The notes under the pieces: generated by a model
Seen by the model: only the letters and a program-made list of their open reading frames with translations
Databases searched by the model: none
Told to the model about the DNA's origin: nothing
Part shown: positions 21,831 to 63,865 of the stretch, piece by piece
How the letters are laid out: each line of letters begins with the position of its first letter
How positions within the stretch are numbered: the first letter of the stretch is position 1
Program-made: the position numbers and the translations under genes
NCBI GenBank assembly: GCA_963664405.1
Contig: OY761158.1
Coordinates: 1,728,001-1,792,000, forward strand
Source of the DNA: Thermoanaerobaculia bacterium
Lineage (GTDB): Bacteria > Acidobacteriota > Thermoanaerobaculia > Multivoradales > Multivoraceae
Direction: 5' to 3'
DNA length: 64,000 bases

Positions 21831-21989
21831 ACCAGCGTTTCCAAAGTCGCGCTACAATAGCTCGCGGTCATTCTGTTCGCTGGCAAGGCGCGCCGACGTA
21901 GGCATATTGGGGAATATGTCGAGGAGGCGCAACGCCGCCAGCGGGGCAGAACGGGCCGAGATATGTAGCGCTACTTTGGAAACGCTGGT
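21831..21989 (+). mobile_element. MITE-like structured element, TIR type A (159 bp), CTAG duplication
   Basis: 17-bp TIR ACCAGCGTTTCCAAAGT / ACTTTGGAAACGCTGGT; CTAG at 21827 and 21990; shared core. Confidence 0.88.
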
Positions 21990-22043
21990 CTAGATGCACC
22001 ACAGCGGCGAGCGACGTAGTATGGGGCGACGAAGGAGATCGCT

Positions 22044-22777
22044 ATGAGGCCCCAAAGCTGACCCCCGCAACCCTCGCCCTGAGCTTGACCGCAGCCTGCC
22101 TGGCCTCCACATCCGCGACAGCGCAGGGACCCGCTCCGGACCGAACGGTCACTGTTGTAGGCCGGGGCGAAGTCAGCGTGGCTCCCGACGTGGCCATCCT
22201 CGAGCTGGCGGTCGAAACCACAGCTACCGAGGCGCAACAGGCTACGGCTGAGAATGCGGAGAAGGCGACCGCAGTGGTCGAGGCACTCCGGGCCAAGCTC
22301 AGTAGCGAAGACACGGTGGCCACGACTCGCTATCAGCTCGATCCCCGCTACGCCGCCAGGCGACCGGGCAGTCAGGCGCCTCCCGAGATCACCGGCTATG
22401 TCGCCCGTAACTTCATTCGCGCCGAAGTGCACGCACTCGACAGCGTTGGAGAGGTTCTAGACGCCGCGATCGAAGCCGGCGCCAACCGAATGACTCAGCT
22501 CAACTTCGCGCTCGAGGAGCGCGGGCCACACCTCGCGGAAGCTCTGAGCCGAGCCGGGAGCGAAGCTCGAGCCCAAGCCGTCAGTATCGCCGATGCGCTC
22601 GGAGTGAAACTACGAGAAGTCCTCAGCGCATCCACGACGGCTCCCCCAGCGGCTCCCTCGAACCGCGTCCAACGTTTCGCTGTATCGGCGGCCATGGAGG
22701 CAGCCCCCTCGACACCTGTCGAGCCCGGCGAGATCCACCTCACGGCGACGCTCACGGTCACTTATCGCATCGAGTAG
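22044..22777 (+). CDS. SIMPL (DUF541) domain periplasmic protein; probable 1-nt deletion in the C4 run near the start
   Basis: TVTVVGRGEVSVAPDVA, GEVLDAAIEAGAN, PVEPGE; AAGGAG + ATG 22044 is out of frame with ORF 22085 unless one C is added (gives MRPPKLTPATLALSL...). Confidence 0.8.
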
Positions 22778-22794
22778 CCGCGCGGTCGGCGGCA

Positions 22795-22848
22795 GACGGT
22801 GACGACCGGCACCAGCTCGGTCGGGTTCTCATCCTCGAGCGGAAACAT
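22795..22848 (-). pseudogene. N-terminal scrap of a rhomboid-family protease
   Basis: MFPLEDENPTELVPVVT resembles the typical rhomboid N-terminus (MFPLxDxNPT..P.VT); no continuation. Confidence 0.5.
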
Positions 22849-22875
22849 GGGCCTGCCTCGCCGGCCGCGACCTAG

Positions 22876-23046
22876 ACCAGCGTTTCCAAAGTTCGTGCTG
22901 CATAGCTCGAGCTCATTCTGTTCGCTGGCCAGGCGCGCCGACGCAGGCATATTGGGCAATATGTCGAGGAGCGCGGGGGCGCCTAGCCAACGCCGGCAGC
23001 GGGCAGAAGGGGCCGAGATATGTGCGCGAACTTTGGAAACGCTGGT
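22876..23046 (+). mobile_element. MITE-like structured element, TIR type A (171 bp)
   Basis: Same 17-bp TIR; CTAG left, CTCG right; core plus extra GGGGGCGCCTAGCC insert. Confidence 0.86.
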
Positions 23047-23054
23047 CTCGACCC

Positions 23055-23369
23055 CTATTGGTCGATCAGGCGCGCGAGCTCGAAGTCGAATCGGGTCAGC
23101 CCTCCGGCATCGTGAGTCGACAGGGTCAAGGTCACTCGATTGTAGCGAATGTCGATATCTGGGTGATGCGCTCGATCCTCTGCCAACTCACCGACGAAGC
23201 TCACGAAGGCGAGAGCGGCCCGGAAGCTCGGAAACTGGTAGGTACGCTGAATCGAGCTGCGTCGGTCGCGACCTTTCCACCCGGGTGTATCTCGTAGCTC
23301 TGCCGAGATCTCTTTGTTTTTCAGCTTGCCGGGTCGCGAAGAACCGCTACTCTTGGCTTCTGTCATCAT
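23055..23369 (-). CDS. phhB: Pterin-4-alpha-carbinolamine dehydratase
   Basis: AHHPDIDIRY, LSTHDAGGLT. Confidence 0.9.
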   Translation of the reverse strand: MMTEAKSSGSSRPGKLKNKEISAELRDTPGWKGRDRRSSIQRTYQFPSFRAALAFVSFVGELAEDRAHHPDIDIRYNRVTLTLSTHDAGGLTRFDFELARLIDQ

Positions 23370-23510
23370 CTCCTCCTCTTATCTACACTCCGTCAGCAGA
23401 TGCCCCACTCTAGTCGAAAAGCCTGAGCTCGAGGGCTGCCGGGTTTCTAGACTCGTAGGGGGGCTCGCCGTAGAATGACCTGTCTTGCCCCTTTAAAGGA
23501 GAGTCCTGAA

Positions 23511-24422
23511 ATGAGAAAGCCGCTGTCCACCAGCCTCCCGCTTCTTTTCCTCACCGCGCTAGCGGGCGCGGCCCTCGCCGGCGTTGCGCTCGCAGCCGAT
23601 GGCGAAGCTCGACTTCTCACCGTCGAGATCACCCCCGACGTCGTCTACGGCCACAAGAGTGGCATGGCCCTGACCTATGACGTGATCCAACCCGCGCAAG
23701 CCAATGGCGCCGGTATTCTCTACATGGTCAGCGGCGGCTGGTTCTCTCGCTGGTCGCCTCCGGAGAAGACGGCAGAGAACTTCGAAGGGCTTCTCGACAA
23801 AGGATTTACGGTGTTTGCGGTGCGACACGGATCGGCGCCGCGATTTAAGGTACCTGAAGCGGTAGAGGATGTGAAACTGGCGACCCGCTTCATTCGTTTG
23901 CATGCCGCCGATTACGGTGTCGACTCCGATCGTCTCGGCGTCTTCGGCGGCAGTGCCGGCGGTCATCTTTCTCTCATGCTAGGCACCACCGGCGACGAGG
24001 GGGATGCCGATTCGAAGGATCCGGCACTGCGGGAAAGTAGTCGCGTCGCCGCCGCTGTCGCCTACTTTCCACCGGTTGACCTCAGGGAGTCAGTCGGGCC
24101 CAACGATCGCTTCCCAGCACTCGACTTCGACCCCACGCTCGCCGCGGCGATCTCTCCCATTCTCCACGTCTCGCCGGATGACGTACCCACTCTCATGATC
24201 CACGGAGACAAGGACACTTTGGTACCTCTCCACAACAGCGAGAGAATTCTGAAAGCCTTCGAGGAAGTGGGTGTAGGTACCGATCTGATCGTCCTCGAGG
24301 GCGCCGGCCATGGATTCCGCGGAGCCCACGCCGAGACCGCGAGAGAGGCGATGGCGAACTGGTTCGAGACCCATCTCGGCGGAGCGCAGGCTCACTCGGA
24401 GGCCCAAAGCACCGCACGGTGA
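23511..24422 (+). CDS. Exported alpha/beta hydrolase (esterase-like)
   Basis: GGSAGGHL nucleophile elbow, HGDKD, GAGHGF; SGG in place of the HGG oxyanion motif; signal peptide. Confidence 0.88.
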   Translation: MRKPLSTSLPLLFLTALAGAALAGVALAADGEARLLTVEITPDVVYGHKSGMALTYDVIQPAQANGAGILYMVSGGWFSRWSPPEKTAENFEGLLDKGFTVFAVRHGSAPRFKVPEAVEDVKLATRFIRLHAADYGVDSDRLGVFGGSAGGHLSLMLGTTGDEGDADSKDPALRESSRVAAAVAYFPPVDLRESVGPNDRFPALDFDPTLAAAISPILHVSPDDVPTLMIHGDKDTLVPLHNSERILKAFEEVGVGTDLIVLEGAGHGFRGAHAETAREAMANWFETHLGGAQAHSEAQSTAR

Positions 24423-24579
24423 GCGCATCAAACGAGAGCGAACGATGACACTTGGCTATATCGACCCGGCGAGTGGAAGCTTCGTCGGTCCCTCATGGCC
24501 AAGACGTGCCGAACCTCCAACAGCAAGCTGCGAAGCCTTTTGGACACTCGCTCTCCCCCGGCGCCGCACCGAGTATCGA

Positions 24580-24855
24580 TCAACCGTATCGGACTTGAAA
24601 CTGTCCGAGCTCGGTTCGCTCCGTATCCTCACACATCTCGACCTCGTCGACATGGGCTCCGGGCGGACCCGTCCGACACCAGCCGGCAAGGGCCTCGATA
24701 TGTTCGCGAGGAGCTTCGGCGACCAGCTCCACCCGCCCGTCAGGGAGGTTGCGAACCCAGCCTCGGATCTCCAGCTCTCTGGCCTTCGCCATGGTGGAGG
24801 CTCGGTACCAGACACCCTGGACCCGTCCAGAGACAACAATACGGACGCGGCGCAA
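24580..24855 (-). CDS. acyP: Acylphosphatase
   Basis: VSGRVQGVWYR, GWVRNLPDGRVE, GPPGA; TTG start at 24855 inferred. Confidence 0.9.
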   Translation of the reverse strand: MRRVRIVVSGRVQGVWYRASTMAKARELEIRGWVRNLPDGRVELVAEAPREHIEALAGWCRTGPPGAHVDEVEMCEDTERTELGQFQVRYG

Positions 24856-24899
24856 AGCTAGGGATTCCGGCCAGATTCGAAACCGCCAGACTGAGGGAA

Positions 24900-25385
24900 T
24901 CAGTTGGGTTCGGCGACCGGGATGCTCTCTTCGTAGGTCACTTCCATGCGATCGAGATAGTGATCCCATTTGCGCACGCTGAGTCCCATCATCACCAGCA
25001 AAATAATAAACATGACGCTGTAAGAGATCAGCCTGGTACGGTTGCTGGTCAGCCCGAGCCGGCGAGCGCGGTACATGCTGAGGGCTTCCCAAGCGGCGAG
25101 CACGGTCAGGATCATGCCGATGATGAGATAGGTCCAGTTGAAAGTCGGCGTGCCATAGACTTCGATCGGGCCGCTCTCCTCGAGGGGCAAGTAGAAGTAG
25201 GCGAAGGCAACATAGGGGACCAGCAACAGGAGCGTAACGACGTGAAATACGACCCTGGAGAGGTTCTGCGAAAGGCCGTCCCTCCGCGCGCGCAAAACGC
25301 CAATCAGTTCGTTGCCGGCAATCAGGAATACCGCAACGGCGAGTAGAATCTCTAAGATCGTGTATGAGCCAAGCATCCCCTTCAT
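24900..25385 (-). CDS. Hypothetical membrane protein (about 4 TM)
   Basis: Four hydrophobic segments with an internal repeat (ARR.GL..N..R...). Confidence 0.72.
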   Translation of the reverse strand: MKGMLGSYTILEILLAVAVFLIAGNELIGVLRARRDGLSQNLSRVVFHVVTLLLLVPYVAFAYFYLPLEESGPIEVYGTPTFNWTYLIIGMILTVLAAWEALSMYRARRLGLTSNRTRLISYSVMFIILLVMMGLSVRKWDHYLDRMEVTYEESIPVAEPN

Positions 25386-25505
25386 CCCTTCAAACAGTCA
25401 GTATGAGCATCTCGATTCACACTATACGCAAGTGGCGAAAAGGTAATATTACTACTTTTGCTGACGATCCCACAATCTCGTCCTCATAAGCAGGAAGGAT
25501 CCGAA

Positions 25506-27254
25506 ATGCCCGACGACCCTGCCAAGAAGCGCAAAGGATGCCTGATCGTGGCCGTCGTGCTGCTACTCCTGCTGTTGATTCCGGTGACCCTGTTCTGGCT
25601 GATGGTACGAAGCTTCGAGCAACAGGAGACCCATGTGGACGGCGGCAGTGTGCTCGAGATCAACCTTTCGCAGCTATCCGGCGAAGGGCCGGCCGAGATC
25701 GACTTCGGACCTCTATTCTCCGTTCCACTCTTCTCACTATGGGAGCTCGGAAGAGTCATCGACCACGCAGCCACAGACGACGACATCGTCGCGGTGCGAC
25801 TCCTACCGAGCGGTGCGTCGGTGGGCTGGGCTGCCGCCGAAGAGATCCTTTCCCACCTCGACTCTTTCCGCGACTCCGACAAGCCAGTTCACGCTCTTCT
25901 CGAGTCTGACATCGTCGTCGACCTCGAGTACTTTCTCGCCACCGGAGCCGATCGCATTCGGGTTCCTGCAGAGAGCGCCGCAGCAATCAACGGCCTGGCG
26001 GCGGAGGCCCACTTCTACCGGGGCACTCTGGACAAGCTCCACATCGAGCCTCAGGTCTTCATGTACAAAGAGTATAAGAGTGCCGGCGAGGCCTATGCCA
26101 ACTATGAGATGAGCCCCTATATGAGGGAGTCTCTAGAGGTCTTGCTCGAAGCCACCCACGACCTATTCGTCAAGCGAGTCTCCGAGCGTCGGGGCCTTCC
26201 TATCGATAGCATTCACGCATTCCTCGAGCGCGGACTGGCACCTGCTCGAGCCCTGGTCGAGGCCGGCCTGGTGGACAACCTAGGCTTCCGCGAGGACCTC
26301 GAAGAGGAGCTCGGCGGAATCGACGGAAGCGATGGATATCGAGGCATCAGCGTCGGCGACTACCTGGCTTCCCTACCGGACACGACCCGACGAGGGGAGA
26401 AGATCGCTCTCGTTTTCGGCGAAGGTCCGGTGGTGACCCGGGCTTCGTCGTCGCTCTTCCCGCTGCTGTCGACCCGGATTCTTGCCGGTAACCGGGTAGC
26501 AGCCGACATTCGTGAAGCCACCGCGGACGACCAGGTGCGTGCCATCGTTTTTCGAGTCAACAGCCCAGGTGGATCCGTATTGGGGTCAGACCTGGTCCGT
26601 CGCGCCGTCGTGTCGGCTCAAGCGGCCGGCAAGCCGGTGGTAGTGAGCATGTCTGACATGGCCGCCTCGGGCGGCTACTGGGTGTCGATGGAGGCTGACG
26701 CCATCGTCGCCCAGGCCACCACGATAACCGGCTCTATCGGAGTGCTCTTCACCAAGCTCAATCTCGACGGCTTCTTTGCCTGGCTCGGCACCCACGTGGA
26801 GCGAGTCGCAACCTCTCCCGCCGCCCATGTGTTGAGCACCGGTCCTCTGGATGAATCCGAGGAGGCCGGCATTCGGGCGTGGATGGACGAGGTCTACGCC
26901 TCCTTCACCGGCCACATCGCAACCGCCCGCGGCCTCGATCCTGAGAAGGTGCAAGAGATCGCTCGGGGGCGAGTCTGGTCGGGTCAGGACGCCCTCGAGC
27001 TCGGCCTCGTAGACCGCCTCGGAGGACTCCGAGAGGCCTTTGAGATCGCCAAGGAGAAGGCCGGGCTCGACCCGCTGGTCGAGTACGGGGTCACCGTCTT
27101 CCCTCGCCCCAAATCCCTCTTCACCAGGCTCTTCGAGGGCGACCTCGAGGCTCCAAGTATGCCCATCCTGGAGCGAAGTGCTCTGATCGAGTGGGCTCGC
27201 GGACTCGCGGCCCCTCAGGTGCAGGCCCGCGCGCCCCACATCCGCATCCACTAG
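25506..27254 (+). CDS. sppA: Signal peptide peptidase SppA, long form
   Basis: YKSAGE, RVNSPGGS, AASGGY, TITGSIGV, GRVWSG. Confidence 0.93.
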   Translation: MPDDPAKKRKGCLIVAVVLLLLLLIPVTLFWLMVRSFEQQETHVDGGSVLEINLSQLSGEGPAEIDFGPLFSVPLFSLWELGRVIDHAATDDDIVAVRLLPSGASVGWAAAEEILSHLDSFRDSDKPVHALLESDIVVDLEYFLATGADRIRVPAESAAAINGLAAEAHFYRGTLDKLHIEPQVFMYKEYKSAGEAYANYEMSPYMRESLEVLLEATHDLFVKRVSERRGLPIDSIHAFLERGLAPARALVEAGLVDNLGFREDLEEELGGIDGSDGYRGISVGDYLASLPDTTRRGEKIALVFGEGPVVTRASSSLFPLLSTRILAGNRVAADIREATADDQVRAIVFRVNSPGGSVLGSDLVRRAVVSAQAAGKPVVVSMSDMAASGGYWVSMEADAIVAQATTITGSIGVLFTKLNLDGFFAWLGTHVERVATSPAAHVLSTGPLDESEEAGIRAWMDEVYASFTGHIATARGLDPEKVQEIARGRVWSGQDALELGLVDRLGGLREAFEIAKEKAGLDPLVEYGVTVFPRPKSLFTRLFEGDLEAPSMPILERSALIEWARGLAAPQVQARAPHIRIH

Positions 27255-27427
27255 CGGACCGTAACACTCGAACGTTTAGTGGCTGAGTGAGTCATTCGTG
27301 GTCGAGATCAAGGCGCGCTGACGCAGGCATAGCGGGGACTATGTCGAGGAACGTGGGGGCGCCCAGCCAACGCAGAGATCGGCCGCGAGGGCCGCTCAGG
27401 CGCTAAACGTTTGGGTGTTACGGTCCA
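27255..27427 (+). mobile_element. MITE-like structured element, TIR type B (173 bp), CTAG duplication
   Basis: (C)GGACCGTAACAC..GTGTTACGGTCCA; CTAG at 27251 and 27428; core plus GGGGGCGCCCAGCC insert. Confidence 0.9.
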
Positions 27428-28273
27428 CTAGGGCTCGATGGGGGCCTCGGGATCGTGGAAGTCGGTCCACCTCCCGAGGTACTGGCCTCCGTCGGCAACG
27501 ATCGAAGACCCGTTTATGTATCGGGCGGCGGGCGAGCATAGGAAGAGAGCGATCGCCGCCATCTCGTCTGACTCGCCAAAACGGTGGGCGGGGATCTCAC
27601 GCAGAGCGTAGGCCGCGTGGTCGTCCTTGTCGGAGTGAGCGAACTCTTCTTCATTGAGACCCCGCGTCTGGACCATTCCCGGCGCCAGCGCGTTCACCGT
27701 GACGTCGCGATGCGCCCAGTGGTAAGCGAGGCTCTTGCTCAGGCTGACGACTCCTGCGCGGGCCGCTCCCGAGTGCGCCCAATCCGGCCCGCCGCGATCG
27801 AAGGAGTAGATGTGAACGACGTTGACGATCGAGCCGAAGCCCCGCGACAACATGTGGCGTCCGAAGCGCGAGCACATGTTCCAAGTGCCGTTGAGATTGA
27901 GATCGACGACCGCGCGCCAGCCCCCGTCACTGATCTCGGTGGGGCGGGCGGGAAATTGTCCGCCGGCATTGTTGATCAGGAAATCCACCTGGCCGAAGCG
28001 CTCGATGCTCCCCTCCAACAACGCCTCGACCTCGCCGATCTCGCGAATGTTTGTCGGCATCGACAGGCATTCGGCGCCTAGCGACGTCAACTCTTCCTCG
28101 GTCGGATCGAGATTCTCACGGTGCCGACTCGCGATCACGACATTGGCGCCGTAGCGGCCAAAAGCAAGAGCAATTCGTCGCCCTATCCCGCGCCCGCCAC
28201 CGGTCACGACGACGGTGCGCCCCGCGAACAAACCCGGGGCGAATACATTCAGAGATGCGTGAAAGTCAATCAT
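27428..28273 (-). CDS. SDR oxidoreductase (2,4-dienoyl-CoA / trans-2-enoyl-CoA reductase-like)
   Basis: TGGGRGIG, NNAGGQF, HSGAARAG, DGG; start MIDFH inferred. Confidence 0.88.
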   Translation of the reverse strand: MIDFHASLNVFAPGLFAGRTVVVTGGGRGIGRRIALAFGRYGANVVIASRHRENLDPTEEELTSLGAECLSMPTNIREIGEVEALLEGSIERFGQVDFLINNAGGQFPARPTEISDGGWRAVVDLNLNGTWNMCSRFGRHMLSRGFGSIVNVVHIYSFDRGGPDWAHSGAARAGVVSLSKSLAYHWAHRDVTVNALAPGMVQTRGLNEEEFAHSDKDDHAAYALREIPAHRFGESDEMAAIALFLCSPAARYINGSSIVADGGQYLGRWTDFHDPEAPIEP

Positions 28274-28371
28274 ATTGGAGCGCCCACCCTGCGTTCCACC
28301 GCCTACTTCAAAGAGGCGGAATCTTACCATCGACAAAAAGAGGATCAATTCCTCTCTCTGGGGCCAACCGT

Positions 28372-28914
28372 TTAGTACGCGCGCACCGAAAACAACCGAC
28401 TCCCTGAAGTGGGGCTGCCACTCCAAGTGAGGCGCAGCCGCTGCACCTGTTGGTCCTCCGCCTGCCATGCCGGAGCACTGCTCAGATCGAAGCGAATCAG
28501 CTTCGGACTCGCCGCTGTCGAGACGACAGAGCGGTTGGGGGTGAAAGCATCGTCCTGCGCCCACCACAGTCTGAAAACCAGCGCATCGAGGCCTTCTCCT
28601 TCGAGCATCAACCCGTCGATCTCCGGCGCCAAGAGATAGACCGACCAGTGGAATCGCCCCTCCGCGCCCTCGAGCGCCAGGCCTCCCTCATCACAGGTCA
28701 CGGTCGTCGAGTCCTGCCGAAACTTCCACAGGTCCTCACCCATGTTGCAGCCGGCGATCCAATAGTGAACGCCACGGGGGTCCCAAGGCGCTGAGCGAGA
28801 GGGGCCGGCTGACGAATCGACGGCTGACTCCCTGCCTCCCTCTCCGCCAGAAGGAGGGACGCAAGCGAGACAGACGAAGCCGATCGACAGCCCGGCAATG
28901 CCGAGAACAGACAT
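28372..28914 (-). CDS. Hypothetical lipoprotein
   Basis: MSVLGIAGLSIGFVCLAC hydrophobic leader with lipobox-like LAC. Confidence 0.55.
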   Translation of the reverse strand: MSVLGIAGLSIGFVCLACVPPSGGEGGRESAVDSSAGPSRSAPWDPRGVHYWIAGCNMGEDLWKFRQDSTTVTCDEGGLALEGAEGRFHWSVYLLAPEIDGLMLEGEGLDALVFRLWWAQDDAFTPNRSVVSTAASPKLIRFDLSSAPAWQAEDQQVQRLRLTWSGSPTSGSRLFSVRAY

Positions 28915-28934
28915 CGCGGTCGGTCGAAGATCTG

Positions 28935-29313
28935 TCGAGGCGATACTAGTGGACCGTAACACTTGAACGTTTAGTGGCTGAGCGAGTCATCGTGGTCGAG
29001 ATCAAGGCGCGCCGACGCAGGCATAGCGGGGACTATGTCGAGGAGGCGCAACGTAGAGATCGGCCGCGAGGGCCGCTCAGGCGCTAAACGTTTGGGTGTT
29101 ACGGTCCACTAGGGTGACTCAGCGATGCGGGCACTTGAGCCTCGCGCTCGAAGCGCGCCATCCGTTGCTCGTCCGAGGCGAAAGCCTCTCGGGAAGCACC
29201 TTGAGGGCGACGGCGCGGTTGAGCCGGGTGTCGATTGCTCGATATACCTCGCCCATCCCGCCTTCGCCGACTCTGGCGCTAATCTCGAAATGGCCGATCA
29301 ACTTGCCGATCAC
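28935..29313 (-). pseudogene. N-terminal remnant of a Hanks-type Ser/Thr kinase, interrupted by the MITE and frameshifted
   Basis: [42 protein letters not shown] / [25 protein letters not shown] |MITE| SIAS. Confidence 0.85.
28950..29108 (+). mobile_element. MITE-like structured element, TIR type B (159 bp), inserted in a kinase remnant
   Basis: TGGACCGTAACAC TIR; CTAG at 28946 and 29109. Confidence 0.9.
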
Positions 29314-29375
29314 GTTTCTCGCCCCGATTCTTGGCCAGGGGGAAGTCATAGTGTATGTCAGACTCACGGCCCAGA

Positions 29376-29921
29376 ATGAGCACTTCAGCAACCCTCGCGC
29401 GCGCTCCTCTACCGCTAGGCGCCTGCATTCTCCTCTCCACTCTCTTTATCCACTTTGGGTTGGCGGCACAGCCGAGTCCTGCGACCTGCGGATCGGCCGA
29501 GCACCGCCAATTCGACTTCTGGATCGGCGACTGGGAAGTCTACGGACCGAACGGCAAGCTCGCCGGCACCAATCGCGTCGAAAAGATCCTCGCCGGATGC
29601 GTGCTGCAAGAGAATTGGGAGAGCGTTCAGGGGGGCCAGGGCAAGAGCTTCAATATGTATTTCAGCCGCGACAAGACCTGGAGGCAGACCTGGGTAGACG
29701 GGGCAGGAGGTAGGCTCGACCTGGTCGGCGGACTTGCGGCGGAGCGCATGGTCTTGCGCGGAGAGATGGCCGGCGACAGCGGCGGAGCGAGGGTACTCCA
29801 CGAGATCTCTTTCACACCTAACGAAGACGGCTCCGTCACCCAGCAGTGGCGAGCGTCTCCGGACGGTGGCGAGACTTGGAAAGACGTATTCGTTGGGATC
29901 TATCGTCGTACCAAGGATTGA
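29376..29921 (+). CDS. Exported hypothetical beta-barrel protein (QFDFWIGDW family)
   Basis: [40 protein letters not shown]. Confidence 0.75.
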
Positions 29922-30302
29922 GAACAGACGCAGAAGTGCTTTACTGCGATCAGGAGTCTTTGCAGCGCGCCTGGATCCGCAGCAGCAGACAATCCGCGTG
30001 GCTGGGCTCCAGTTGGTGGGCCGTCTGGAGCTCGCAGGTGTTGGTGTGGATCTTGCGCCCGGACCCCCGCAGCTCCGTGCGAAGCTCTGGACCTCGACTG
30101 AGGGCGACAAGTGGTTCAAGCTCGCGTTCGAGAACTTCTTCCGCGGGAGAGCTCGGGCAGGACGCCACTTCGCGCCCGCCATTGCCCTTGGCGATCTCCG
30201 CCTAGAAAGCGGCCGAGCGCGAGTCGATCTATCGGCTCGAGATCCTCGAGGCCGGACACAGCGCTCCGCCATCGGCCCGATCGGCGGTAGACTTCCCTGA
30301 TC

Positions 30303-31097
30303 TTGAGCTCTGTTCTCCGCTTCCTGGGCAGGTCGGTACACAACGCGCTCGAAGACGCCGGCGCGATGTGGCGACTGGGGTCTGCGGCACTGTCCTGCTG
30401 CCTTCTCGGCCCTCTGCGAGGCGAGAGATTTCGCCTCCAGGCGACTATGGACCAGTCGGTCCGGGCCGGTTACAGCTCGTTGCCCCTGGTCGCGCTGATC
30501 TGCTTTCTCGTCGGCATGATCATGGTTCTGCAGTCCGCCTATCAGCTGCAAGAGCTCGGAGCCCTCGATATGGTCGCCAGCCTCGTCGGCATCTCGGTGA
30601 CGCGCGAACTGGCTCCCCTGCTGACGGCGGTCATCGTTTCCGGGCGAGTCGGTTCCGCTATCGCCGCCGAGCTCGGAACGATGCAGGTCTCCCAGGAGGT
30701 CGACGCCATGAAAGTGATGGGGATCGACCCCGTCTCGTTCTTGGTCGTGCCGCGACTGATCGCACTACTGATCGCGCTGCCGTGCCTGACCGTCTTCGGC
30801 GACGTGATCGGTATTTTGGGTGGGCAGTTCGTCGCAGTGACCGTACTCGAGATGTCCGCGAGCCACTACAGCGCCCTGACCCTCGACGCTCTCGTACTCG
30901 AGGACATCTACACCGGCCTGGTGAAGGCAGTGGCCTTTGCCGTTATCATCGGGCTGGTCGGATGCCACCAGGGTCTGTCGACCTTCGGGGGAGCCGACGA
31001 GGTCGGGCGCTCCACAACCGCCGCGGTTGTGCGATCGATCGTTCTGGTCATCGCCGCCGACCTTCTGGTCACAGCCCTCTTCTTCTTTCGCGGATAG
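30303..31097 (+). CDS. mlaE: MlaE-family ABC permease
   Basis: RELAPLLTA..SGRVGSAIAAELGTM...E.DA..MG.DP..LVVPR; VGRSTT. Confidence 0.93.
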   Translation: MSSVLRFLGRSVHNALEDAGAMWRLGSAALSCCLLGPLRGERFRLQATMDQSVRAGYSSLPLVALICFLVGMIMVLQSAYQLQELGALDMVASLVGISVTRELAPLLTAVIVSGRVGSAIAAELGTMQVSQEVDAMKVMGIDPVSFLVVPRLIALLIALPCLTVFGDVIGILGGQFVAVTVLEMSASHYSALTLDALVLEDIYTGLVKAVAFAVIIGLVGCHQGLSTFGGADEVGRSTTAAVVRSIVLVIAADLLVTALFFFRG

Positions 31098-31101
31098 AAG
31101 C

Positions 31102-33517: not shown

Positions 33518-33569
33518 GACGCTTCTCAATACGCCGGTACGACGCCGAGAGAGACGGCCCTCCGGCACG

Positions 33570-43045: not shown

Positions 43046-43060
43046 ACGGAGGAGAAAGGG

Positions 43061-49486: not shown

Positions 49487-49558
49487 ACCAGCGCCGCATT
49501 CGGACCCCACGACGAACTCAGCGTATGATCGGCTTGACCTTTCAAGAGGAGCAAGCTG

Positions 49559-51849: not shown

Positions 51850-51855
51850 GGCGAC

Positions 51856-52827: not shown

Positions 52828-52855
52828 TGTCGATCGAGGCGGCCTCGAGACTTCG

Positions 52856-53717
52856 CTACCGTACTCGCACAATCAGACGCTGCGCTCCGGCCAAGATAGC
52901 CACCTGCGCGGGATGGTCGAGGTCGAGAACAATCCGAGTGACCGGAGTGGGCTCGGGCTGAAACTGAGCCGAACGAACAAACCGCACCGGAGCGTGGGCG
53001 CTATGGCCGTCATCTGGGCCTGCCCGGTGCAACACTCCTTCGAGGTCCACTACGAGTCGCTCCGGGTCCGGTAGTCGGAAGGCGCGCCAAGAAAACGCAC
53101 CGTCCCCAACCAGGATCACATCGACTCCGAGAAGGCCTCTCTCGACAACCTCGAGCCCTACCAGCTCGCTAGCCCGCTGCCCTTGTGGCTCCGCCCCGCT
53201 TACCCCTCTTCTACCTCCGTAGCCGATGGTCAGGGGCGGCGGCTCAGCCGCGGCAGCGGTGCCGTCCAAGGAGACCTGAGTCTCGATCTCTTCAACCTGC
53301 GCGGCTCGCTCGTCGAGGCCCTCATCCCCCTCCGTCTCTTCCTCTGTCTCGAGCCACTGCACTTCCCGGGTCAGCGAGGGCGGACGAAAAGGTTGATCTT
53401 CCACCACACGGTGCGGGCTTCCGGTCGCTTCAGGCACGGTGACCGGCGCCCGCGGCGCCGGTGAAGCGCAACCCGACAGCAGCTGTGCGGCGAGAACTAG
53501 TGTCGTGTCCCAGAAATGCCTACCCAATAGCTCGGCCCCTTTCGCTCGCTGCCTTCGTTACGCCTCGTCGACAGATTTCCCAATATGCCTGCCTCGACGC
53601 GCCTTGGCAGCGAACGAAATGACCTCGATCTATTAGGCAGGCATTTCCGGGACACGACACTAGAACGACTGCACCCTCTGCGCGTGCGAACGATCTCGAT
53701 CTGACCTTCTCCAACAC
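52856..53717 (-). CDS. AMIN-domain lipoprotein whose signal peptide is interrupted by a MITE
   Basis: FRLPDPERLVVDL, VRSAQF, TRIVLDL; removing 53501-53663 gives MLEKVRSRSFARAEGAVVLVLAAQLLSGC. Confidence 0.78.
53501..53659 (-). mobile_element. MITE-like structured element, TIR type C (159 bp), CTAG duplication
   Basis: TGTCGTGTCCC(A/G)GAAATGCCT TIR; CTAG at 53497 and 53660; shared core on the minus strand. Confidence 0.9.
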
Positions 53718-55807: not shown

Positions 55808-55921
55808 CGGAAGCTCCGTCGCAAGTTCTCAGGCACGCGCCTGCGCAGAAAAGGAGGGACAGACTCGAGAAGACACTATCATTCAGCCGCGAGCTTGAGG
55901 CCTTGCCTCAGGTACGGCAAG

Positions 55922-57565: not shown

Positions 57566-57669
57566 CCTCCAGAAATGATGGCTATCATTTCCTCCGGCTA
57601 GTTGTCTTTTGGCGCCGAGGACGGCGCACTCGGCCTCCAGAAATGATGGCTATCATTTCCTCCGGCTAG
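57562..57669. repeat. REP-like units (hairpin-CTAG-GCGCCGAGGACGGCGC); the second copy is split by IS1182
   Basis: CCTCCAGAAATGATGGCTATCATTTCCTCCGGCTAG occurs twice; the second copy resumes at 59224 with TTGTCTTTTGGCGCCGAGGACGGCGCACTCGG. Confidence 0.85.
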
Positions 57670-59223
57670 GAGTCTGCGCGGCAGAAACGGAGTGTTTAGT
57701 GAAGAGATCGAAGACGGAGTAGAGTTGTGGCATGCCAACGTCATTTCGTCCGTATGCCCCGGATCAGCTGTATCTGTTAGCTCCGAGCCCTCGTGACTGG
57801 TTGCCGGAGGGTCACTTGGTGTACTTCATCTCCGAGACGGTGGAGGCGCTGGATCTGTCGTCGTTCTACGCTCGTTACGAGGGGGATGGTCGTCGGAATC
57901 AGCCGTTCGATCCTCGGATGATGGTGAAGGTTTTGCTGTATGCGTATGCGACGGGGACGTATTCGTCGCGTGGCATCGCGCGCAAGCTCGAGGAGGACGT
58001 GGCCTATCGTTTTCTGGCGGCGGGCAACTCTCCGGCGCATCGCACGATTTGTGAGTTTCGTCAGCTTCATTTGGCGGCCTTCCACGCACTGTTCGTGCAG
58101 GTGGTGCAGATCGCGCGTGAGGCCGGGGTGTTGCGTCTGGGGACGTTGGTGGTGGACGGTACGAAGGTCAAGGCCAACGCGAGCAAGCGCAAGTCGATGA
58201 GCTACGGTCGAATGCTGGAGGAGGAGAAGCGTCTGGAGGAGGAGATCGCCGCGCTGATGGCGCAGGCCGAGGCGGTGGATACGGCTGAGGATGCCGAGCA
58301 TGGAGCGCAGCTGCGCGGCGATGAGCTGCCGGCCGAGCTGCAACGGCGCGAGCAGCGCTTGGCGAAGATCCAGGAGGCGAAGGCGCGCCTCGAGGCGCGC
58401 CAGGCCGAGAAGGACCGCGCGCGCGGCCGTACGGAGGATGACGACGACGATCCGCCTCGTCGCGGACGCCCCTTCGCGCGCGATTTCGGTGTTCCGGAGG
58501 ACCGGGCCCAAGACAACTTCACCGATCCGCAGAGTCGGATCATGAAAACGGTCCATGGCTACGATCAGTGCTACAACGGCCAGTTGGCGGTGGAGGAAGA
58601 GTCGCAGATGATCGTCTCGACGAGCCTGACGAACAACGCCGCGGACGTGGACCAGATGATGCCGTTGCTCTCCCGGGCGAAGGCGGCGCTGGGGGAGGAT
58701 CCCGAGCAGGTCTTGGCGGACGCGGGGTATCGCAGCGAGGCGACATTCCTCGAACTCGAGGAGCGAAGCATTGACGCTCACATCTCCTTGGGTCGAGAGG
58801 GAAAGAAGTGGGAAGTGAGTACGCAGCTCGAAGCGTCTCACCGCATGCAGATCAAACTCGCCAGCGAGGCCGGCAAGCAACGCTACCGACGGCGCAAGGC
58901 GGTCGTGGAACCGGTGATCGGGTGGATCAAAGAGGTGCTGGGCTTCCGAAGATTCAGCCTCCGGGGCCAGGAGAACGTCGGCCACGAATGGGATCTGGTG
59001 TGTCTGGCCGTCAATCTCAAGCGCTTCCACGTCCTCCAAGCGGCTTTATGAGCCGCTCCGGGCCATGCCACCGAGTTAGAGCTCACTATACGACCCGCAT
59101 CGCGCTTCCTGACGCCTCGTCAGGCTTGCTCAACGCACTCTCCGCCATCCGAAACCCAATGCGGCGTCCATTCTGCAGCGCGATCGAAGCTTCACCGTAC
59201 CCGCACTCCTGCCGCGCAGACTC
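57670..59223 (+). mobile_element. IS1182-family insertion sequence, 1554 bp
   Basis: 15-bp perfect TIR GAGTCTGCGCGGCAG; CTAG duplication at 57666 and 59224. Confidence 0.93.
57732..59051 (+). CDS. IS1182-family DDE transposase
   Basis: WLPEGHL, MMVKVLLYAY, VDGTKVKANAS, TDPQSRIM, ADAGY, YRRRKAVVEP. Confidence 0.94.
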   Translation: MPTSFRPYAPDQLYLLAPSPRDWLPEGHLVYFISETVEALDLSSFYARYEGDGRRNQPFDPRMMVKVLLYAYATGTYSSRGIARKLEEDVAYRFLAAGNSPAHRTICEFRQLHLAAFHALFVQVVQIAREAGVLRLGTLVVDGTKVKANASKRKSMSYGRMLEEEKRLEEEIAALMAQAEAVDTAEDAEHGAQLRGDELPAELQRREQRLAKIQEAKARLEARQAEKDRARGRTEDDDDDPPRRGRPFARDFGVPEDRAQDNFTDPQSRIMKTVHGYDQCYNGQLAVEEESQMIVSTSLTNNAADVDQMMPLLSRAKAALGEDPEQVLADAGYRSEATFLELEERSIDAHISLGREGKKWEVSTQLEASHRMQIKLASEAGKQRYRRRKAVVEPVIGWIKEVLGFRRFSLRGQENVGHEWDLVCLAVNLKRFHVLQAAL

Positions 59224-59319
59224 CTAGTTGTCTTTTGGCGCCGAGGACGGCGCACTCGGGCGGTGCTTTCTATTCGCTCCGGGAAACGGCTCAGGACCAA
59301 TACTCGGACACGCTCCTAG

Positions 59320-59508
59320 CCTGGACTATTCATGAGGTCCGTAGCGAGGTGCCGCAGATGCCCGAAGATACAAGGCGTCGCGACCGAGAGCACCGCAGGC
59401 GTATTGGGCAATACGTCGAGGGGCGCGACGGGGACGCCCAGTCAGAGCGCAACGCAGTAGATTCGGGCAGCTGCGGCACCGTAGTAGGAGCTTCATGAAT
59501 AGTCCAGG
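59320..59508 (+). mobile_element. MITE-like structured element, TIR type D (189 bp), CTAG duplication
   Basis: CCTGGACTATTCATGA / TCATGAATAGTCCAGG; CTAG at 59316 and 59509; core variant GGCGTATT..AATACGTC. Confidence 0.88.
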
Positions 59509-59767
59509 CTAGGAGCGTGTCCGAGAATTCGGACAGGCGAGTAGTTCTTAGGGGGGGATGGGCCGGAGAACGGGCCGCAGGTCCGTTTTCCGGGGCTAGG
59601 GTTCGGCTGCGATCGATCAAACTGCAGTCGCTGAGTCGGACCGGTCTCGAGGCCAGATGCCGACCTGAGATCGCCGCATCGTATTGGCCCAGACCTCTGC
59701 TACGCTCTAGCCTTCCGAAGAACAACCGGGGCAGCCTCGAGCTGCCGCAGAGGAGAGACTTCTTGCG

Positions 59768-60413
59768 ATGTCGATAAGCGCCGCGCTGATCATTCTTGCA
59801 ATTGGCGGGGTGATGGTTGCCTTCATTGCCGCGGAGTACTTGAGCCGACGCCCCAAGAAAGCGGCAAGACCCGACTGCGACTTCGAGACCGCGTGCGATC
59901 ACTATCTGGGCAGCCCAGACCTTTGGTCCGAGCGAGACAGGGCTGCGATCAAGAGCGTAGCCTCGGATCTCGCAGGCGCGAAACGGGACTTGGTCGAGAG
60001 TCTGACAGCGACGATAGAGAAGAGCCTCGACTCGCCGCAGCCGATACCGGTGCTACGGGAGGCGATCATGGACGCTACCGACCGCTTTTTCATGGCCGAG
60101 ACCTTGTACCAACCTGTCGAAGGCGCGCCAACCGGACCAAGCCTGGCGGGGGGTTCTAGTTCGCTCGCTCGGAGGCTACGGGGACGTCATGCAGAGCGAA
60201 GAGAAGCTCCTCGAAGTCGCCAAGGCGGCCCATCAGGGCTGGCAGCAACACCAGGGAGACAGTCGACTCAACGCGGCACTCACTGCCGCCTGCGGGCTCG
60301 CCTTCGACGAAGCTGCGACCAGGACCGCGGGCGGAGCCGAGGGCCTCGCCGCCGGGATGCTGGAAGACGCCTCCGCTCTGGTCGGATCGATCCAGCAGGC
60401 CACCCGCGACTGA
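59768..60413 (+). CDS. Membrane-anchored hypothetical protein, probable +1 frameshift in the G6 run 60148-60153
   Basis: N-terminal TM; ORF 59768 turns low-complexity after the G run, while ORF 60189..60413 continues as a plausible helical sequence. Confidence 0.5.
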
Positions 60414-60441
60414 GACTGCGGCACCCGAGCTGCGCTCCGTC

Positions 60442-62517
60442 CTAGTGAAAGCCCTCGCCTTCGTCGGCGAGTCGCTGCAGCAGCGGCGAGATCTGCCAAT
60501 GATCTCCACCCAGCGTCTCGCTGTAGTGGTTGATCTTCTCGGCAACGTTATCGAGTCCCTGCCGCCCGGCCCAGAACATCGGACCCCCCCGGTACACCGG
60601 CCATCCATAACCGTTCACCCAGACCACATCGATATCGCTGGCGCGAATGGCCATGCCTTCTTCGAGAATCTTGGCGCCCTCGTTGATCATCGGGTAGAGA
60701 CAGCGTTCCAGGATCTCCTGATCGCTCACTTCGCGTTGGGCTATCCCCTGCTTGTCGGCGAACTCGCGAATGATCTCCTCCACTTCCGGATCCGGCGAGG
60801 AGGCGCGAGTCTCGGCATTGTAAACATAGAAACCGGCGCCGCTCTTCTGACCTAGACGGCCCCGCTCGCAGAGTACCTCTCGTACTGTCGACGAGGTCGA
60901 TGTTTCCTTCTTCCAACCGATATCGAGGCCGGCGAGATCGCCCATCGCAAACGGACCCATGGGAAACCCGAAGTCGTAGAGGACCTGATCGACCTGCCAG
61001 GGCGTTGCGCCCTCGAAGATGATCTTGTTGGCCTCGATGCCGCGCTTCGCAAGAATGCGGTTGCCGACGAAGCCTGGGCAGACACCGACCAGGGCAGGGA
61101 TCTTGTTGATCCTCTTGGCGAGAGCCATCGAAGTGGCAATCACCTCCTTCGAGGTCTTCTCCCCTCGCACCACCTCGAGCAGCCGCATGACGTTCGCCGG
61201 GCTGAAGAAGTGAAGCCCGATCACGCTCTCCGGGCGTCGCGTCTCGGCGGCGATCTGGTTCACATCGAGCCCGGAGGTGTTCGACGCCAGCACCGCACCC
61301 TCCTTGCAGATGCCGTCGAGCTCGCGGAAGATGCTCTTCTTGAGCTCCATGTCCTCGAATACAGCTTCGATGACCATGTCCTTGTCGGCGAAGTCCGCCT
61401 TGTCGACCGAGCCTTGGATCAGCGACATGCGCCTGTCGACCTCATCCATCGTGAAACGCCCGCGGCTGGCGGAGCGCTCGTAGTTCTTGCGAATGACCGC
61501 GAAGCCGCGGTCGAGGCGATCCTGGCTAGCCTCGACAACGGTGACCGGAATTCCGACGTTGGCGAAATTCATCGAGATCCCGCCCCCCATCGTGCCGCAG
61601 CCCAAGATCCCTACCGACTCGATTGGGATCTGCGGCGTGTCGCGAGGAACATCAGGAACCTTGGCAGCTTCCCGCTCGGCGAAGAAGTAGTACCGCTGCG
61701 CCGCTGATTGGGGCCCCGTAACCAGCTCTAGAAAGAGCTCTCTCTCCCTGGCGAGACCCTCGTCGAAGGGAAGATTGACGGCTGCCTCGACGCAGCGGAC
61801 GTTGTACTCCGGAGCGAGGAATCCGCGAGTCTTGCGAGCGATCTTGCGACGGAAGTCGCTGAAGATCTCGCCCCTTGCCTTGGCCTCTTCGATCTTTTCT
61901 TCTCGGTCGCGGATTCTCTTCAGCGGCCGGCCCTCGGCCAGAAGCTCCTCGGCAAAATCGACTGCACCCTGCTTGAGGTCGCCGTCGACGATCTTGTCGA
62001 TAAGACCGTAGGACAGCGCTTGCTCGCTACCGATGGGATCTCCAATGGCACACATCTCGAGGCCCTTCTCGACCCCTACAACACGCGGTAGCCGCTGAGT
62101 TCCGCCGGCTCCGGGAAGCAGCCCGATCTTGACCTCCGGCTGTCCATATTGGGCTGACGGCGCGCCGACGCGATAGTGAGCGCACATTGCCACCTCGAGG
62201 CCCCCGCCCAGGGCGGTACCGTGAATCGCCGCCACAACAGGCTTGGAGCAGGTCTCCATCGCATCTTGGACGTCGCCGAGAGCCGCACCCTTAGCTTCCT
62301 GACCGAACTCCTTAATGTCGGCACCGGCGATAAAAGTGCGTCCGTCGCAGACCACGACTACGGCCTTGATCTGGTCGTCGAGCCCGGCCTGAGTCATGCC
62401 TTCGAGGAGGCCTGTTCGAACATGCCAGCTGAGGGCGTTGACAGGTGGATTGTCGACGACGAGAAGACCGATGTCGCCCTTCTTTTCAAGACTCACGCTT
62501 TCGCTGATCGCTACCAT
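60442..62517 (-). CDS. Enoyl-CoA hydratase / 3-hydroxyacyl-CoA dehydrogenase multifunctional enzyme
   Basis: NPPVNAL, GGGLE, PGAGGTQRLPR, GCGTMGGG, EAVFE, HFFSPA, GFVGNR. Confidence 0.93.
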   Translation of the reverse strand: MVAISESVSLEKKGDIGLLVVDNPPVNALSWHVRTGLLEGMTQAGLDDQIKAVVVVCDGRTFIAGADIKEFGQEAKGAALGDVQDAMETCSKPVVAAIHGTALGGGLEVAMCAHYRVGAPSAQYGQPEVKIGLLPGAGGTQRLPRVVGVEKGLEMCAIGDPIGSEQALSYGLIDKIVDGDLKQGAVDFAEELLAEGRPLKRIRDREEKIEEAKARGEIFSDFRRKIARKTRGFLAPEYNVRCVEAAVNLPFDEGLARERELFLELVTGPQSAAQRYYFFAEREAAKVPDVPRDTPQIPIESVGILGCGTMGGGISMNFANVGIPVTVVEASQDRLDRGFAVIRKNYERSASRGRFTMDEVDRRMSLIQGSVDKADFADKDMVIEAVFEDMELKKSIFRELDGICKEGAVLASNTSGLDVNQIAAETRRPESVIGLHFFSPANVMRLLEVVRGEKTSKEVIATSMALAKRINKIPALVGVCPGFVGNRILAKRGIEANKIIFEGATPWQVDQVLYDFGFPMGPFAMGDLAGLDIGWKKETSTSSTVREVLCERGRLGQKSGAGFYVYNAETRASSPDPEVEEIIREFADKQGIAQREVSDQEILERCLYPMINEGAKILEEGMAIRASDIDVVWVNGYGWPVYRGGPMFWAGRQGLDNVAEKINHYSETLGGDHWQISPLLQRLADEGEGFH

Positions 62518-62707
62518 GGCATCGGACTCCTATTTAGTGGCCTATGTCGTGGCCTCTTGCGCTACCATGGAGGCGGCACAAAACATTTCCTTGTGGCCTG
62601 AGCTAAGACTCGAGCACTTCGTTCTGCACGGGGGCAGGCCGCCGGGCTCGCAGGCATACCGTCCGACACCAAGTGTCGGGAGCCTCGGAGACTCGAGATT
62701 CACAGTG

Positions 62708-63088
62708 TCAAAGGCTGCGCTTGCGGCCTCGAATGCGACGGCGACTGCCCTTCGGCTTCCCCTGAGGCTTCTCGAAGGGGGGACGGGATCCGCCGCCGAA
62801 GCCTCCCCCCGATGAAGACATGGGGGCGCGCTGCGGCCGGTCGTCGGCCATATTCACTCGTAGGCTGCGGCCGCCAAGATCCGCCCCATCAAACTGAGAA
62901 GCGGCCTCGGCAGCCTCCTGCTCCGATGAGAACTCGACAAATGCGAAGCCACGAGGACGGCCGGTATTGCGATCGTTCGGGATCACAACATCGGTGATCT
63001 CACCAGCCTTGGAGAAGTGCTGCTCCAACTCGACACGGGTGGTATCGAAACTGAGGTTGCCGACAAAAACTTTCCTGGAAATAACCAA
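62708..63088 (-). CDS. RRM RNA-binding protein
   Basis: RNP2 VFVGNL, RNP1 RGFAFVEF, Gly/Arg-rich tail. Confidence 0.92.
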   Translation of the reverse strand: MVISRKVFVGNLSFDTTRVELEQHFSKAGEITDVVIPNDRNTGRPRGFAFVEFSSEQEAAEAASQFDGADLGGRSLRVNMADDRPQRAPMSSSGGGFGGGSRPPFEKPQGKPKGSRRRIRGRKRSL

Positions 63089-63143
63089 ACCTCCTTGACA
63101 TGAACGGTAAGTCTACACGGATTCGAGTCCTTCCGCACCGAGC

Positions 63144-63692
63144 CTACTTGCCCCCCAGCCAAACCACCTTGGCGCCGGCAACCGCGGCCTCCGCTCGAGC
63201 GTCGATCTGCTCATCAGTCAAGGTGCTGAGAGGGTGCTCGATTAGCACCGGAGAGAGCGAGCTCATACCCAACGCGTCTCGCTGCATCCTGGCCTCGAGC
63301 TCGAACTCGGCGGTGATCACGACAGCAGTCGCGACGCCGCGCTGTTCGAGGCCCACTGAGTCGTGCATACAGCACGACGTGCACGAACCTCAATCGCCTA
63401 TCGCGGTGATCACCAGATCGCAGTCTCGAGCGATCTCGTCCAAGAGCTGAGGGTCTGCAGCTCGCGAGAAGCTCTCCTTGGCATAGAAGCGGATCTCACC
63501 CAATCCATCCTCGGCCTCCAGTCGCGCGGCGATCCTGCGAAGGAGCTTGCCGGCGTTCCACTTGGTGTTATCAAGGACGCCCAAGCTCCGCCCCTGCAGG
63601 CGTTGCGGCCGGGGCGCTAGAGGCTGTGGCGTAGCGTCAGTGTTTCCCCGGGGGTCGAAGACTAGATCTTGGTCGGGCGGTGACTGGGTCAT
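63144..63692 (-). CDS. UGSC-family selenoprotein (182 aa; Sec at TGA 63392-63390)
   Basis: Two ORFs in the same frame joined by one TGA: ...VITAIGD-U-GSCTSCCMHD...; hairpin 3' of the UGA. Confidence 0.88.
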
Positions 63693-63705
63693 GAATTCCT
63701 CCTAG

Positions 63706-63865
63706 TGGACCGTAACACTCGAACGTTTAGTGGCTGAGTGAGTCATTCGTGGTCGAGATCAAGGCGCGCTGACGCAGGCATATCGGGGACTATGTCGAGG
63801 AAGCGTAACGCAGAGATCGGCCGCGAGGGCCGCTCAGGCGCTAAACGTTTGGGTGTTACGGTCCA
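63706..63865 (+). mobile_element. MITE-like structured element, TIR type B (160 bp), CTAG duplication
   Basis: TGGACCGTAACAC TIR; CTAG at 63702 and 63866. Confidence 0.9.

Follow-up and report, generated by a model that had tools for sequence, protein, structure and literature searches.

A cross-phylum superfamily of ~159-nucleotide hairpin mini-transposons with a conserved center and diverse ends

Within a 64,000-nucleotide stretch of a Thermoanaerobaculia genome (GenBank assembly GCA_963664405.1, contig OY761158.1, positions 1,728,001–1,792,000 of the forward strand; hereafter the window), seven short non-coding elements flanked by CTAG had been picked out in a preliminary description made from the letters alone. 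We found that the observation is real and larger than that description saw: the elements belong to a cross-phylum superfamily of ~159-nucleotide (nt) hairpin mini-transposons. [quoted passage not shown]

Reading each element again in the window, we recovered all seven at the positions first given for them, and they account for every match to the core within the 64 kb. Two are of type A: A1 (21831–21989, plus strand, 159 nt) has CTAG on both sides, at 21827–21830 and 21990–21993, and A2 (22876–23046, plus strand, 171 nt) carries a core variant longer by 13 nt and is flanked by CTAG on the left and CTCG on the right. Three are of type B: B1 (27255–27427, plus strand, 173 nt) has the long core variant and a left end whose first base is mutated (CGGACC..), and the other two are B2 (28950–29108, plus strand, 159 nt) and B3 (63706–63865, plus strand, 160 nt); all three are CTAG-flanked. 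The remaining two, also CTAG-flanked, are C1 of type C (53501–53659, 159 nt), in which the core strand is the minus strand, and D1 of type D (59320–59508, plus strand, 189 nt), which has a diverged core with extra insertions. Compared with the 159-nt copies, the 171- and 173-nt copies contain the same swap in the right half of the core, in which 17 nt replace 4 nt. When aligned, all seven share the center CAAGGCG..AGGC(A/G)TA-loop-TA(T/C)G(T/C)CGA..(A/G)ACG, to which type D adds insertions, and a sub-terminal GTCA/GGGCCG internal loop is visible in types A–C. The preliminary description had reported this center, this loop and a length tightly held across end types (159 nt in A1, B2 and C1, and 160 nt in B3), all of which hold up; the center, moreover, proved to be a covarying stem-loop when compared with controls.

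To the rest of the genome, a single contig of 6.78 Mb with 62.6% G+C, we applied a 51-nt core profile built from four of the seven window copies (threshold E ≤ 0.001), which gave 241 matches; inverted ends could be set for 235 of them, and 172 had CTAG on both sides. An exact core pattern matched 99 places in the genome, compared with none for a reversed control pattern; such numbers far exceed chance. The profile missed two types, D and H (the latter with a variant core, in 12 copies); once they were added, the working set held 254 elements, comprising 130 of type A, 26 of B, 21 of E, 12 of F, 12 of H, 10 of C, 9 of D and 8 of G, together with 26 untyped; 193 of the 254 had CTAG on both sides. 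Copies were close to their type consensus in most types (identity 0.92 for A, 0.99 for B, 0.99 for F, 0.98 for H and 0.98 for D) and more diverged in type E (0.79). When we scanned for pairs of CTAG no more than 400 bp apart with inverted inner 14 nt, 153 of the 233 pairs spanned 156–161 nt and 20 spanned 168–173 nt; the sole other sizeable length class was a 32-nt mini-palindrome present in 26 copies. The core was carried by nearly all copies of the types counted (117 of 120 for A, 20 of 21 for E, 17 of 17 for C/F and 16 of 16 for B). A covariance model of the core, a check that the preliminary description had proposed, matched all 150 candidates that were scored (E ≤ 3.5e-11), which places at least 150 such cores in the genome.

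The elements thus have the anatomy of MITEs, being short (157–173 nt), non-coding and present in ~250 copies with inverted ends. There are at least eight end types, and most copies measure 157–160 nt or 13 nt more. A coding role was considered and rejected: in types A and B a frame of 25 codons starts at an ATG in the core and closes at the TAG of the right flank, but no reading frame is conserved, that ATG being absent from types C, E, G and H and the frame being broken by a stop in type F. Elements of different types also occur back to back on one CTAG, such as F beside H (genome positions 264381–264701) and, in a related genome, a B-like beside a G-like element. The flanking word itself is scarce, as CTAG is threefold rarer in the whole genome than base composition predicts (7502 occurrences vs ~23,200), and TTAA occurs only 770 times.

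Each element as a whole is one long imperfect hairpin, and its structure is supported by covariation. The consensus fold of 19 elements of seven types contained 59 pairs, 47 of which showed compensating double changes; 93.7% of its cells were paired, compared with 68.4% in shuffles and 31–44% when the partner column was slid, and its covariation score was 0.666, compared with 0.193, with none of 500 shuffles reaching any of these measures. Most of the conserved letters lie in internal loops, where CAAGG (5′ side) faces CAACG (3′ side) and AGGC stands just before the tip hairpin, and the helices between the conserved loops vary and covary. A set of 58 cores from many phyla (55 from the cross-phylum loci described below and three from this genome), in which the letters of the search pattern are invariant by construction, behaved likewise, with 91.5% of cells paired, compared with 71.0% in shuffles and 27–46% when slid, and a covariation score of 0.516, compared with 0.160. 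The preliminary description had said that a match to a described Rfam family would undo its reading, but the core matched none: the window gave no match at the gathering score, and 12 elements searched at E ≤ 1 gave two chance-level matches far under their thresholds.

The fold favors one strand. When the left arm was set against the reverse complement of the right arm, we counted 15,053 Watson–Crick, 1668 G.T and 338 A.C oppositions, with G.T exceeding A.C in seven of the eight types (type D being the exception). Because a G.T opposition on the core strand is an A.C opposition on the other, the core strand folds much better. Within families, 122 changes at paired sites led to G.T, 59 led to A.C and 59 were compensated, counts that are not independent because of shared ancestry. 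Folded in silico as RNA, B2 had a predicted energy of −115.2 kcal/mol for the top (core) strand, compared with −81.5 kcal/mol for the bottom strand, and a predicted z of −14.7 for the top strand.

In contrast to the center, the ends differ so much between types that the preliminary description, which knew only types A–D, took them for four unrelated sequences swapped onto a common core. In a free-offset alignment test we too found no likeness among types A–D, the only similarities being between C and F, between E and G, and between D and E. However, because the types are collinear, an in-register comparison is a fair test, and in register the terminal 26 nt (of types A–C and E–H; D was not included) had a mean identity of ~40%, compared with ~25% in shuffles. 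Agreement ranged from 5 to 19 of the 26 positions, compared with 6–7 in shuffles, and exceeded the shuffle mean in 41 of 42 comparisons, in which the two ends of a pair are not independent. The ends are therefore diverged rather than unrelated. Type A compared with C/F was 0.85–0.92 identical in most 13-nt windows of the center and 0.31–0.54 identical in the ends, positions 14–26 of type A matched types E/G (0.69–0.77), and the core variant with 13 additional nt was shared by types A and B, with lengths greater by 13 nt also in type E. By this pattern of identities type A is a mosaic. Given the homology in register of collinear types, what had been described as swapping of ends is better read as fast divergence plus recombination among members.

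The distribution of the core extends far beyond this genome. Among 41 related genomes (this one included), the exact core pattern was found in six, at 99, 56, 5, 1, 1 and 1 places, and its reversed control was found in none. In the relative with 56 places the core lies within three other end types and no copy had CTAG on both sides; instead, 10 of 20 copies had, in their printed flanks, identical 3-nt TNA repeats (TAA in five, TCA in four and TTA in one), which is the pattern left by staggered cuts. The CTAG targeting described earlier for these elements is therefore not universal. The preliminary description had also mentioned similar cores in other phyla, and a scan of one genome per species bore this out, with at least 107 stretches matching the core pattern. 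By record titles, the matches come from at least Acidobacteriota (many of them Thermoanaerobaculia), Gemmatimonadota, Actinomycetota (a Nocardioides isolate among them), Planctomycetota, Latescibacterota, Binatia, Desulfobacterota, Geobacteraceae, several Gammaproteobacteria, Burkholderiales, a Bdellovibrio isolate, Omnitrophota, Verrucomicrobiota, Rhodothermales and one Clostridia bin.

Among the matches listed we examined 81, in 80 loci. In nearly all of them the right half, which the pattern leaves unforced, ended in CAACG or a one-letter variant; 62 had inverted ends (at least 11 of 12), 8 lay at a contig edge and 11 had none. Of those 62, 47 measured 157–173 nt (counting palindromic flank letters), 10 started and ended exactly with CTAG, and six more had CTAG one to six letters in. 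Repeats of TNA also flanked listed matches in several other phyla. No match to the core pattern was found in 2.9 million viral contigs, and a type B element had no match among 72,556 plasmid records. The Bdellovibrio isolate has the same core in a shorter hairpin of 99 nt, which stands beside a short tandem repeat between convergent genes.

Across 93 type A copies, private mutations per site numbered 0.30 in the core, 0.38–0.39 in the arms, and 0.40 and 0.70 in the two ends, and this even spread indicates that single copies are unprotected by selection. Contigs from public sequencing runs were compared with positions 21000–30000 of the window, which hold four copies, and three of the four (A1, A2 and B1) were missing from related populations. 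The A1 site was bridged without the element in runs X8 and X11 (1–3% diverged), which skipped 194 and 200 nt; these alleles also lacked an adjoining 21-nt piece of a type F left end, which lies between two CTAGs directly before A1 (21806–21826). Such a type F end piece also precedes a type A copy at genome position 6758847 that carries an IS91-family unit (see below). In run X11 the A2 site was bridged with 181 nt skipped between 5-nt repeats (CGACC), and B1 was replaced by 25 other letters. The comparison of empty and filled sites suggested in the preliminary description thus yielded element-less alleles, none of which is a clean single CTAG site. In the near-identical population of run X2 the contigs break at every copy, which makes them uninformative on empty sites.

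Some copies have moved with passengers. Two type A copies, at two loci that are each flanked by CTAG, carry in their tip loop a 2548-bp IS91-family unit that encodes a Y2 transposase (E = 5e-61) and a tyrosine recombinase. The two units, both outside the window (genome positions 6758933–6761480 and 6272486–6275033), are 97.25% identical; the differences between the composites lie in the passenger and the right junction, most of them in the last 450 nt of the unit, and none lie in the arms. Because the composite occupies two CTAG-flanked loci with unchanged arms, the type A ends most likely carried 2.7 kb as one unit. The IS91-family unit was rejected as the parent of type A; its left end is the same in five IS91-like copies outside any mini-element, which makes it a passenger. 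A 74-nt CTAG-flanked element is nested in ten type A copies, which measure 236 or 249 nt, and ends-only copies of 51 and 53 nt also exist. A strict molecular ruler for length was rejected, since copies with 74-nt or 2.5-kb inserts still spread. From the strand-biased fold, the absence of copies from related populations and the even decay along their length, we conclude that the elements are mobile and selfish.

As the preliminary description had supposed, the genome does contain several insertion sequences (ISs) with CTAG flanks, namely four IS1182-like groups (with DDE_Tnp_1 transposases of 440–510 aa) and one IS630-like IS. A member of the first kind lies in the window at 57670–59223 (plus strand, 1554 bp, CTAG-flanked, ends GAGTCTGCGCGGCAG) and encodes a 439-aa transposase at 57732–59051 with the Pfam domains DUF772, DDE_Tnp_1 and DDE_Tnp_1_6; it has eight copies in the genome, and its ends match no mini-element. 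Three further CTAG-flanked IS groups, with unrelated ends, lie elsewhere in the genome. The IS630-like IS, also CTAG-flanked, is 1237 bp long with an interrupted frame and is accompanied by one partial copy. IS630 inserts at the TA within CTAG, according to the title of Tenzen and Ohtsubo (1991) as given in the reference list of PMC2170065, and ISY100 duplicates TA (PMC2170065). By-eye likeness of the A, B and E ends to the IS630-like IS failed a free-offset shuffle test and was discarded; among 224 tests, type H resembled the IS630-like end (z 4.0–4.5), and no other type exceeded the IS1182-like controls. Across the 41 genomes, IS630-type transposase genes were present in 16, including all three with at least five elements.

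In our preferred reading, all types would be collinear descendants of one ~159-nt element in which the central 50–100 nt, three stacked helices with conserved internal loops, would be held constant and the outer ~26 nt of each arm would evolve several times faster, always with compensation in the other arm. Recombination among collinear members would make mosaics without a change of length, and because recombination between collinear relatives keeps length, one center and one size could persist across end types; the constant 159 nt is better explained in this way than by the capture of foreign ends. Copies would insert at CTAG here and at a TNA-type site in other genomes, remain polymorphic and then decay neutrally, so selection would act on the ability to spread and not on a host function of each copy. 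The central stem-loop may be a cis-acting module that has to fold on one strand in particular, as RNA or single-stranded DNA, probably serving a widely conserved protein that aids transposition as its binding site. Because no resident IS shares their ends, we only infer a mover, which would be a transposase acting in trans and cutting CTAG with a short stagger; a resident IS630/Tc1-mariner-like or IS1182-like IS could serve.

Several observations weigh against this reading, most of them concerning the mover. In this genome none of the eight end types is shared with any resident IS, and long pairs of any end type enclosed only neighboring mini-elements and the IS91-carrying composite; the elements are MITEs by anatomy and behavior, yet no autonomous partner with matching ends was found. 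Scores of z ≥ 3 were reached in 5% of tests against the IS630-like ends, little different from the 3% reached against IS1182-like controls. In the relative with 56 copies, no matching ends were found beside its transposase genes (few DDE_Tnp_1 and IS630-like), and its IS630-like ISs are present only at full length with no short derivatives, for which reason we rejected an IS630 link in that genome. The association with IS630-type genes across genomes is weak, since such genes also occur in 13 of the 38 other genomes, and two of these hold 10 copies of them but lack the element. The known cut-and-paste transposition of double-stranded DNA by DDE enzymes gives no reason for a fold bias toward one strand, which ordinary cut-and-paste transposition leaves unexplained. 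The A2-less allele retains no CTAG, such that insertion and imprecise loss are indistinguishable there, and the movement of copies with large inserts implies that neither an exact length nor an unbroken hairpin is strictly needed. Finally, where flanks are imperfect among the 254 elements, the outer two CTAG letters (CT on the left, AG on the right) deviate ~4-fold more often than the inner two (AG on the left, CT on the right), a pattern that neither a 2-nt nor a 4-nt duplication predicts. Set beside the CTAG flanks of 193 of the 254 elements in this genome are the 3-nt direct repeats of 10 of 20 copies in the relative.

The conserved one-strand fold also admits a stronger proposal, which we hold only tentatively and judge rather doubtful, that the ~160-nt hairpin itself is the unit of selection: an ancient, cross-phylum, strand-specific structured nucleic acid whose core would recruit a conserved protein of the cell or of a mobile element and whose loose ends could be used by any transposase with a short stagger (CTAG/TA here, TNA elsewhere), making a class defined by structure and not the derivative of one IS. 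The view closest to the preliminary description, in which the core is a cargo that repeatedly captured the ends of unrelated CTAG-specific ISs and each type, a deletion derivative or chimera of a different IS, is moved by the transposase of that IS, strikes us as unlikely. It would account for the coexistence in this genome of several CTAG-flanked IS families with wholly different ends, for the presence of the same core between TNA-flanked ends in a relative and for the sharp step in identity between types A and C/F ~26 nt from each end, and the frequent nested or back-to-back elements on one CTAG could supply the chimeras. However, none of the eight end types matches a resident IS end, no autonomous IS that could have lent its ends was found in this genome or the element-rich relative, the in-register likeness of the end types (~40% vs 25%) speaks for common descent, and neither collinearity nor a single length across types would be expected of foreign ends.

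Slightly less probable still is movement as single-stranded DNA hairpins, in the manner of REPIN/RAYT (PMC2817692) or IS200/IS605 elements, with an HUH tyrosine enzyme reading the conserved core and cutting the foot of the hairpin, and CTAG serving as the cleavage or target word rather than being a duplication. The strong one-strand fold bias, the position of the conserved letters in internal loops of the hairpin, and the lack of a matching DDE partner in this genome and the relative would all suit such a mechanism, as would the presence in the genome of 13 diverged Y1_Tnp-like genes (HUH, partial domain) of ~300 aa and a weak bias in orientation relative to replication (150 vs 104, p = 0.005, with origin and terminus placed from GC skew only). 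That bias is nevertheless small and opposite to that of IS608. Furthermore, no element lies within 4 kb of 11 of the 13 Y1_Tnp loci, and at the remaining two an element is present on a single side; relatives with one element or none do contain Y1 genes (6, 5 and 3 matches), and a search of one relative that has elements found no Y1 gene. REPINs conserve their two ends (the REPs), which also flank the RAYT gene, whereas in the present family the ends are variable, the elements do not flank the Y1 genes and the occurrence of those genes across relatives does not track that of the elements; we accordingly rejected a RAYT/REPIN system. The likenesses to REPINs are that both are intergenic hairpins of high copy number, presumed to act as single strands, with a conserved four-letter word at the foot. 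The variable 3-nt repeats (TAA, TCA, TTA) at half of the copies surveyed in a relative are what staggered cuts give, and elements with 2.5-kb or 74-nt inserts have still spread, both of which are at odds with this mechanism.

Least probable, and in our view very unlikely, is that the center is a structured RNA or protein-binding site used by the host, for instance as a small RNA or in stabilizing messages, spread by transposons and kept by host selection. Conservation across phyla with covariation and the G.U bias typical of RNA, together with the very stable fold predicted for the top-strand RNA, would be expected of such a function, and the spaces between convergent genes are favored, holding 82 of 227 intergenic copies compared with ~20% of neighboring gene pairs. 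But orientation relative to neighboring tandem genes (called roughly, from open reading frames and selection on third-position G+C) was random, with 54 copies in the same and 51 in the opposite orientation; the core is not depleted in private mutations; copies are present or absent between close populations; and the distribution among relatives is patchy, with 35 of 41 genomes having none and counts varying a hundredfold. The random orientation to genes also led us to reject a terminator or message-end function as the main role.

Among the nearest known systems are the bacterial MITEs of the IS630/Tc1-mariner kind, which include the Correia and ERIC elements. Like those studied here, they are short, non-coding, high-copy and mostly intergenic, and form a hairpin over the whole element through their inverted repeats; in the parts of the sources compared, they share the CTAG site (TA inside CTAG for IS630, by the title listed in PMC2170065) and are moved in trans. 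The member compared was MITEEc1 (its ISfinder name), from the parts of PMC11602168 that treat it. Our elements differ from that kind in having no partner IS found, a conserved center, a length of ~159 nt and a one-strand fold bias. Their CTAG flanks agree with that kind; of the end types only H resembles the resident IS630-like end, and the association across the 41 genomes is weak. Tourist-like MITEs belong to the IS5/PIF-Harbinger superfamily. The elements of the relatives resemble them in starting with G, ending with C and having 3-nt TNA repeats, and differ from them in that the DDE_Tnp_1_2 and DDE_Tnp_4 families (PF13586 and PF13359, typical of IS5-IS427 and Harbinger) were absent from the five genomes tested, including the relative with 56 copies, and in the CTAG flanks of this genome.

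The preliminary description had stressed that the pattern of conservation is the reverse of that of classical MITEs, which proved correct here but has one published precedent. This closest published pattern is that of the coral CMITEs (Wang et al., 2010; PMC2872659), whose families resemble one another more in the inside than in the terminal repeats, as ours do; the elements form tandem arrays, new ones arise by nested insertion, and the authors guess that the inside aids transposition. CMITEs differ in being animal elements linked to piggyBac-like transposons (PMC2872659), and covarying structure, strand bias, a fixed length and cross-phylum spread are not reported in the parts of that paper compared. 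A review of prokaryotic MITEs (PMC10969869) and a census (PMC11602168), both from 2024, show no such family in the parts compared, and their supplements could list it. Full-text literature searches returned no description of this core and none of a bacterial MITE superfamily with a conserved center, with unlabelled listings in supplements or ISfinder being possible. No paper in the same searches contained more than one of three core strings.

The usual explanation of mini-transposons is that they are gutted ISs in which nothing but the ends matters. Here the reverse holds on a large scale: a covarying central fold on one strand is kept from Acidobacteriota to Actinomycetota, Planctomycetota, several proteobacterial groups and Bdellovibrio, and it is the ends that become diverse and recombine. 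Should the core be a transposition enhancer or protein-binding hairpin, it would point to an unrecognised co-factor of host or transposase shared by many phyla, and this genome, which combines eight end types with several candidate transposases, would be a ready test system. In practical terms, one covariance model is enough to find these repeats, at each copy of which short-read assemblies break.

Around D1 and the IS1182-like IS, the window holds smaller CTAG-flanked sequences. D1 was inserted at a CTAG in the center of a palindrome made up of the start of an element at 59513–59595 and the sequence before 59316. The element at 59513–59595 is itself CTAG-flanked, 83 nt long and without inverted ends, and a related 74-nt form is the one nested in the ten type A copies mentioned above. 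Two of the 32-nt CTAG-flanked mini-palindromes stand at 57566–57597 and 57634–57665; their constant center, GAAATGAT....ATCATTTC, is enclosed by a variable outer 5–6 nt, so that they show the reversed pattern on a small scale. At 57598–57633 and 59224–59259 a direct repeat of 36 nt (CTAG plus 32 nt) brackets a mini-palindrome together with the IS1182-like IS; it may represent either a long duplication of the target or an insertion site that was duplicated.

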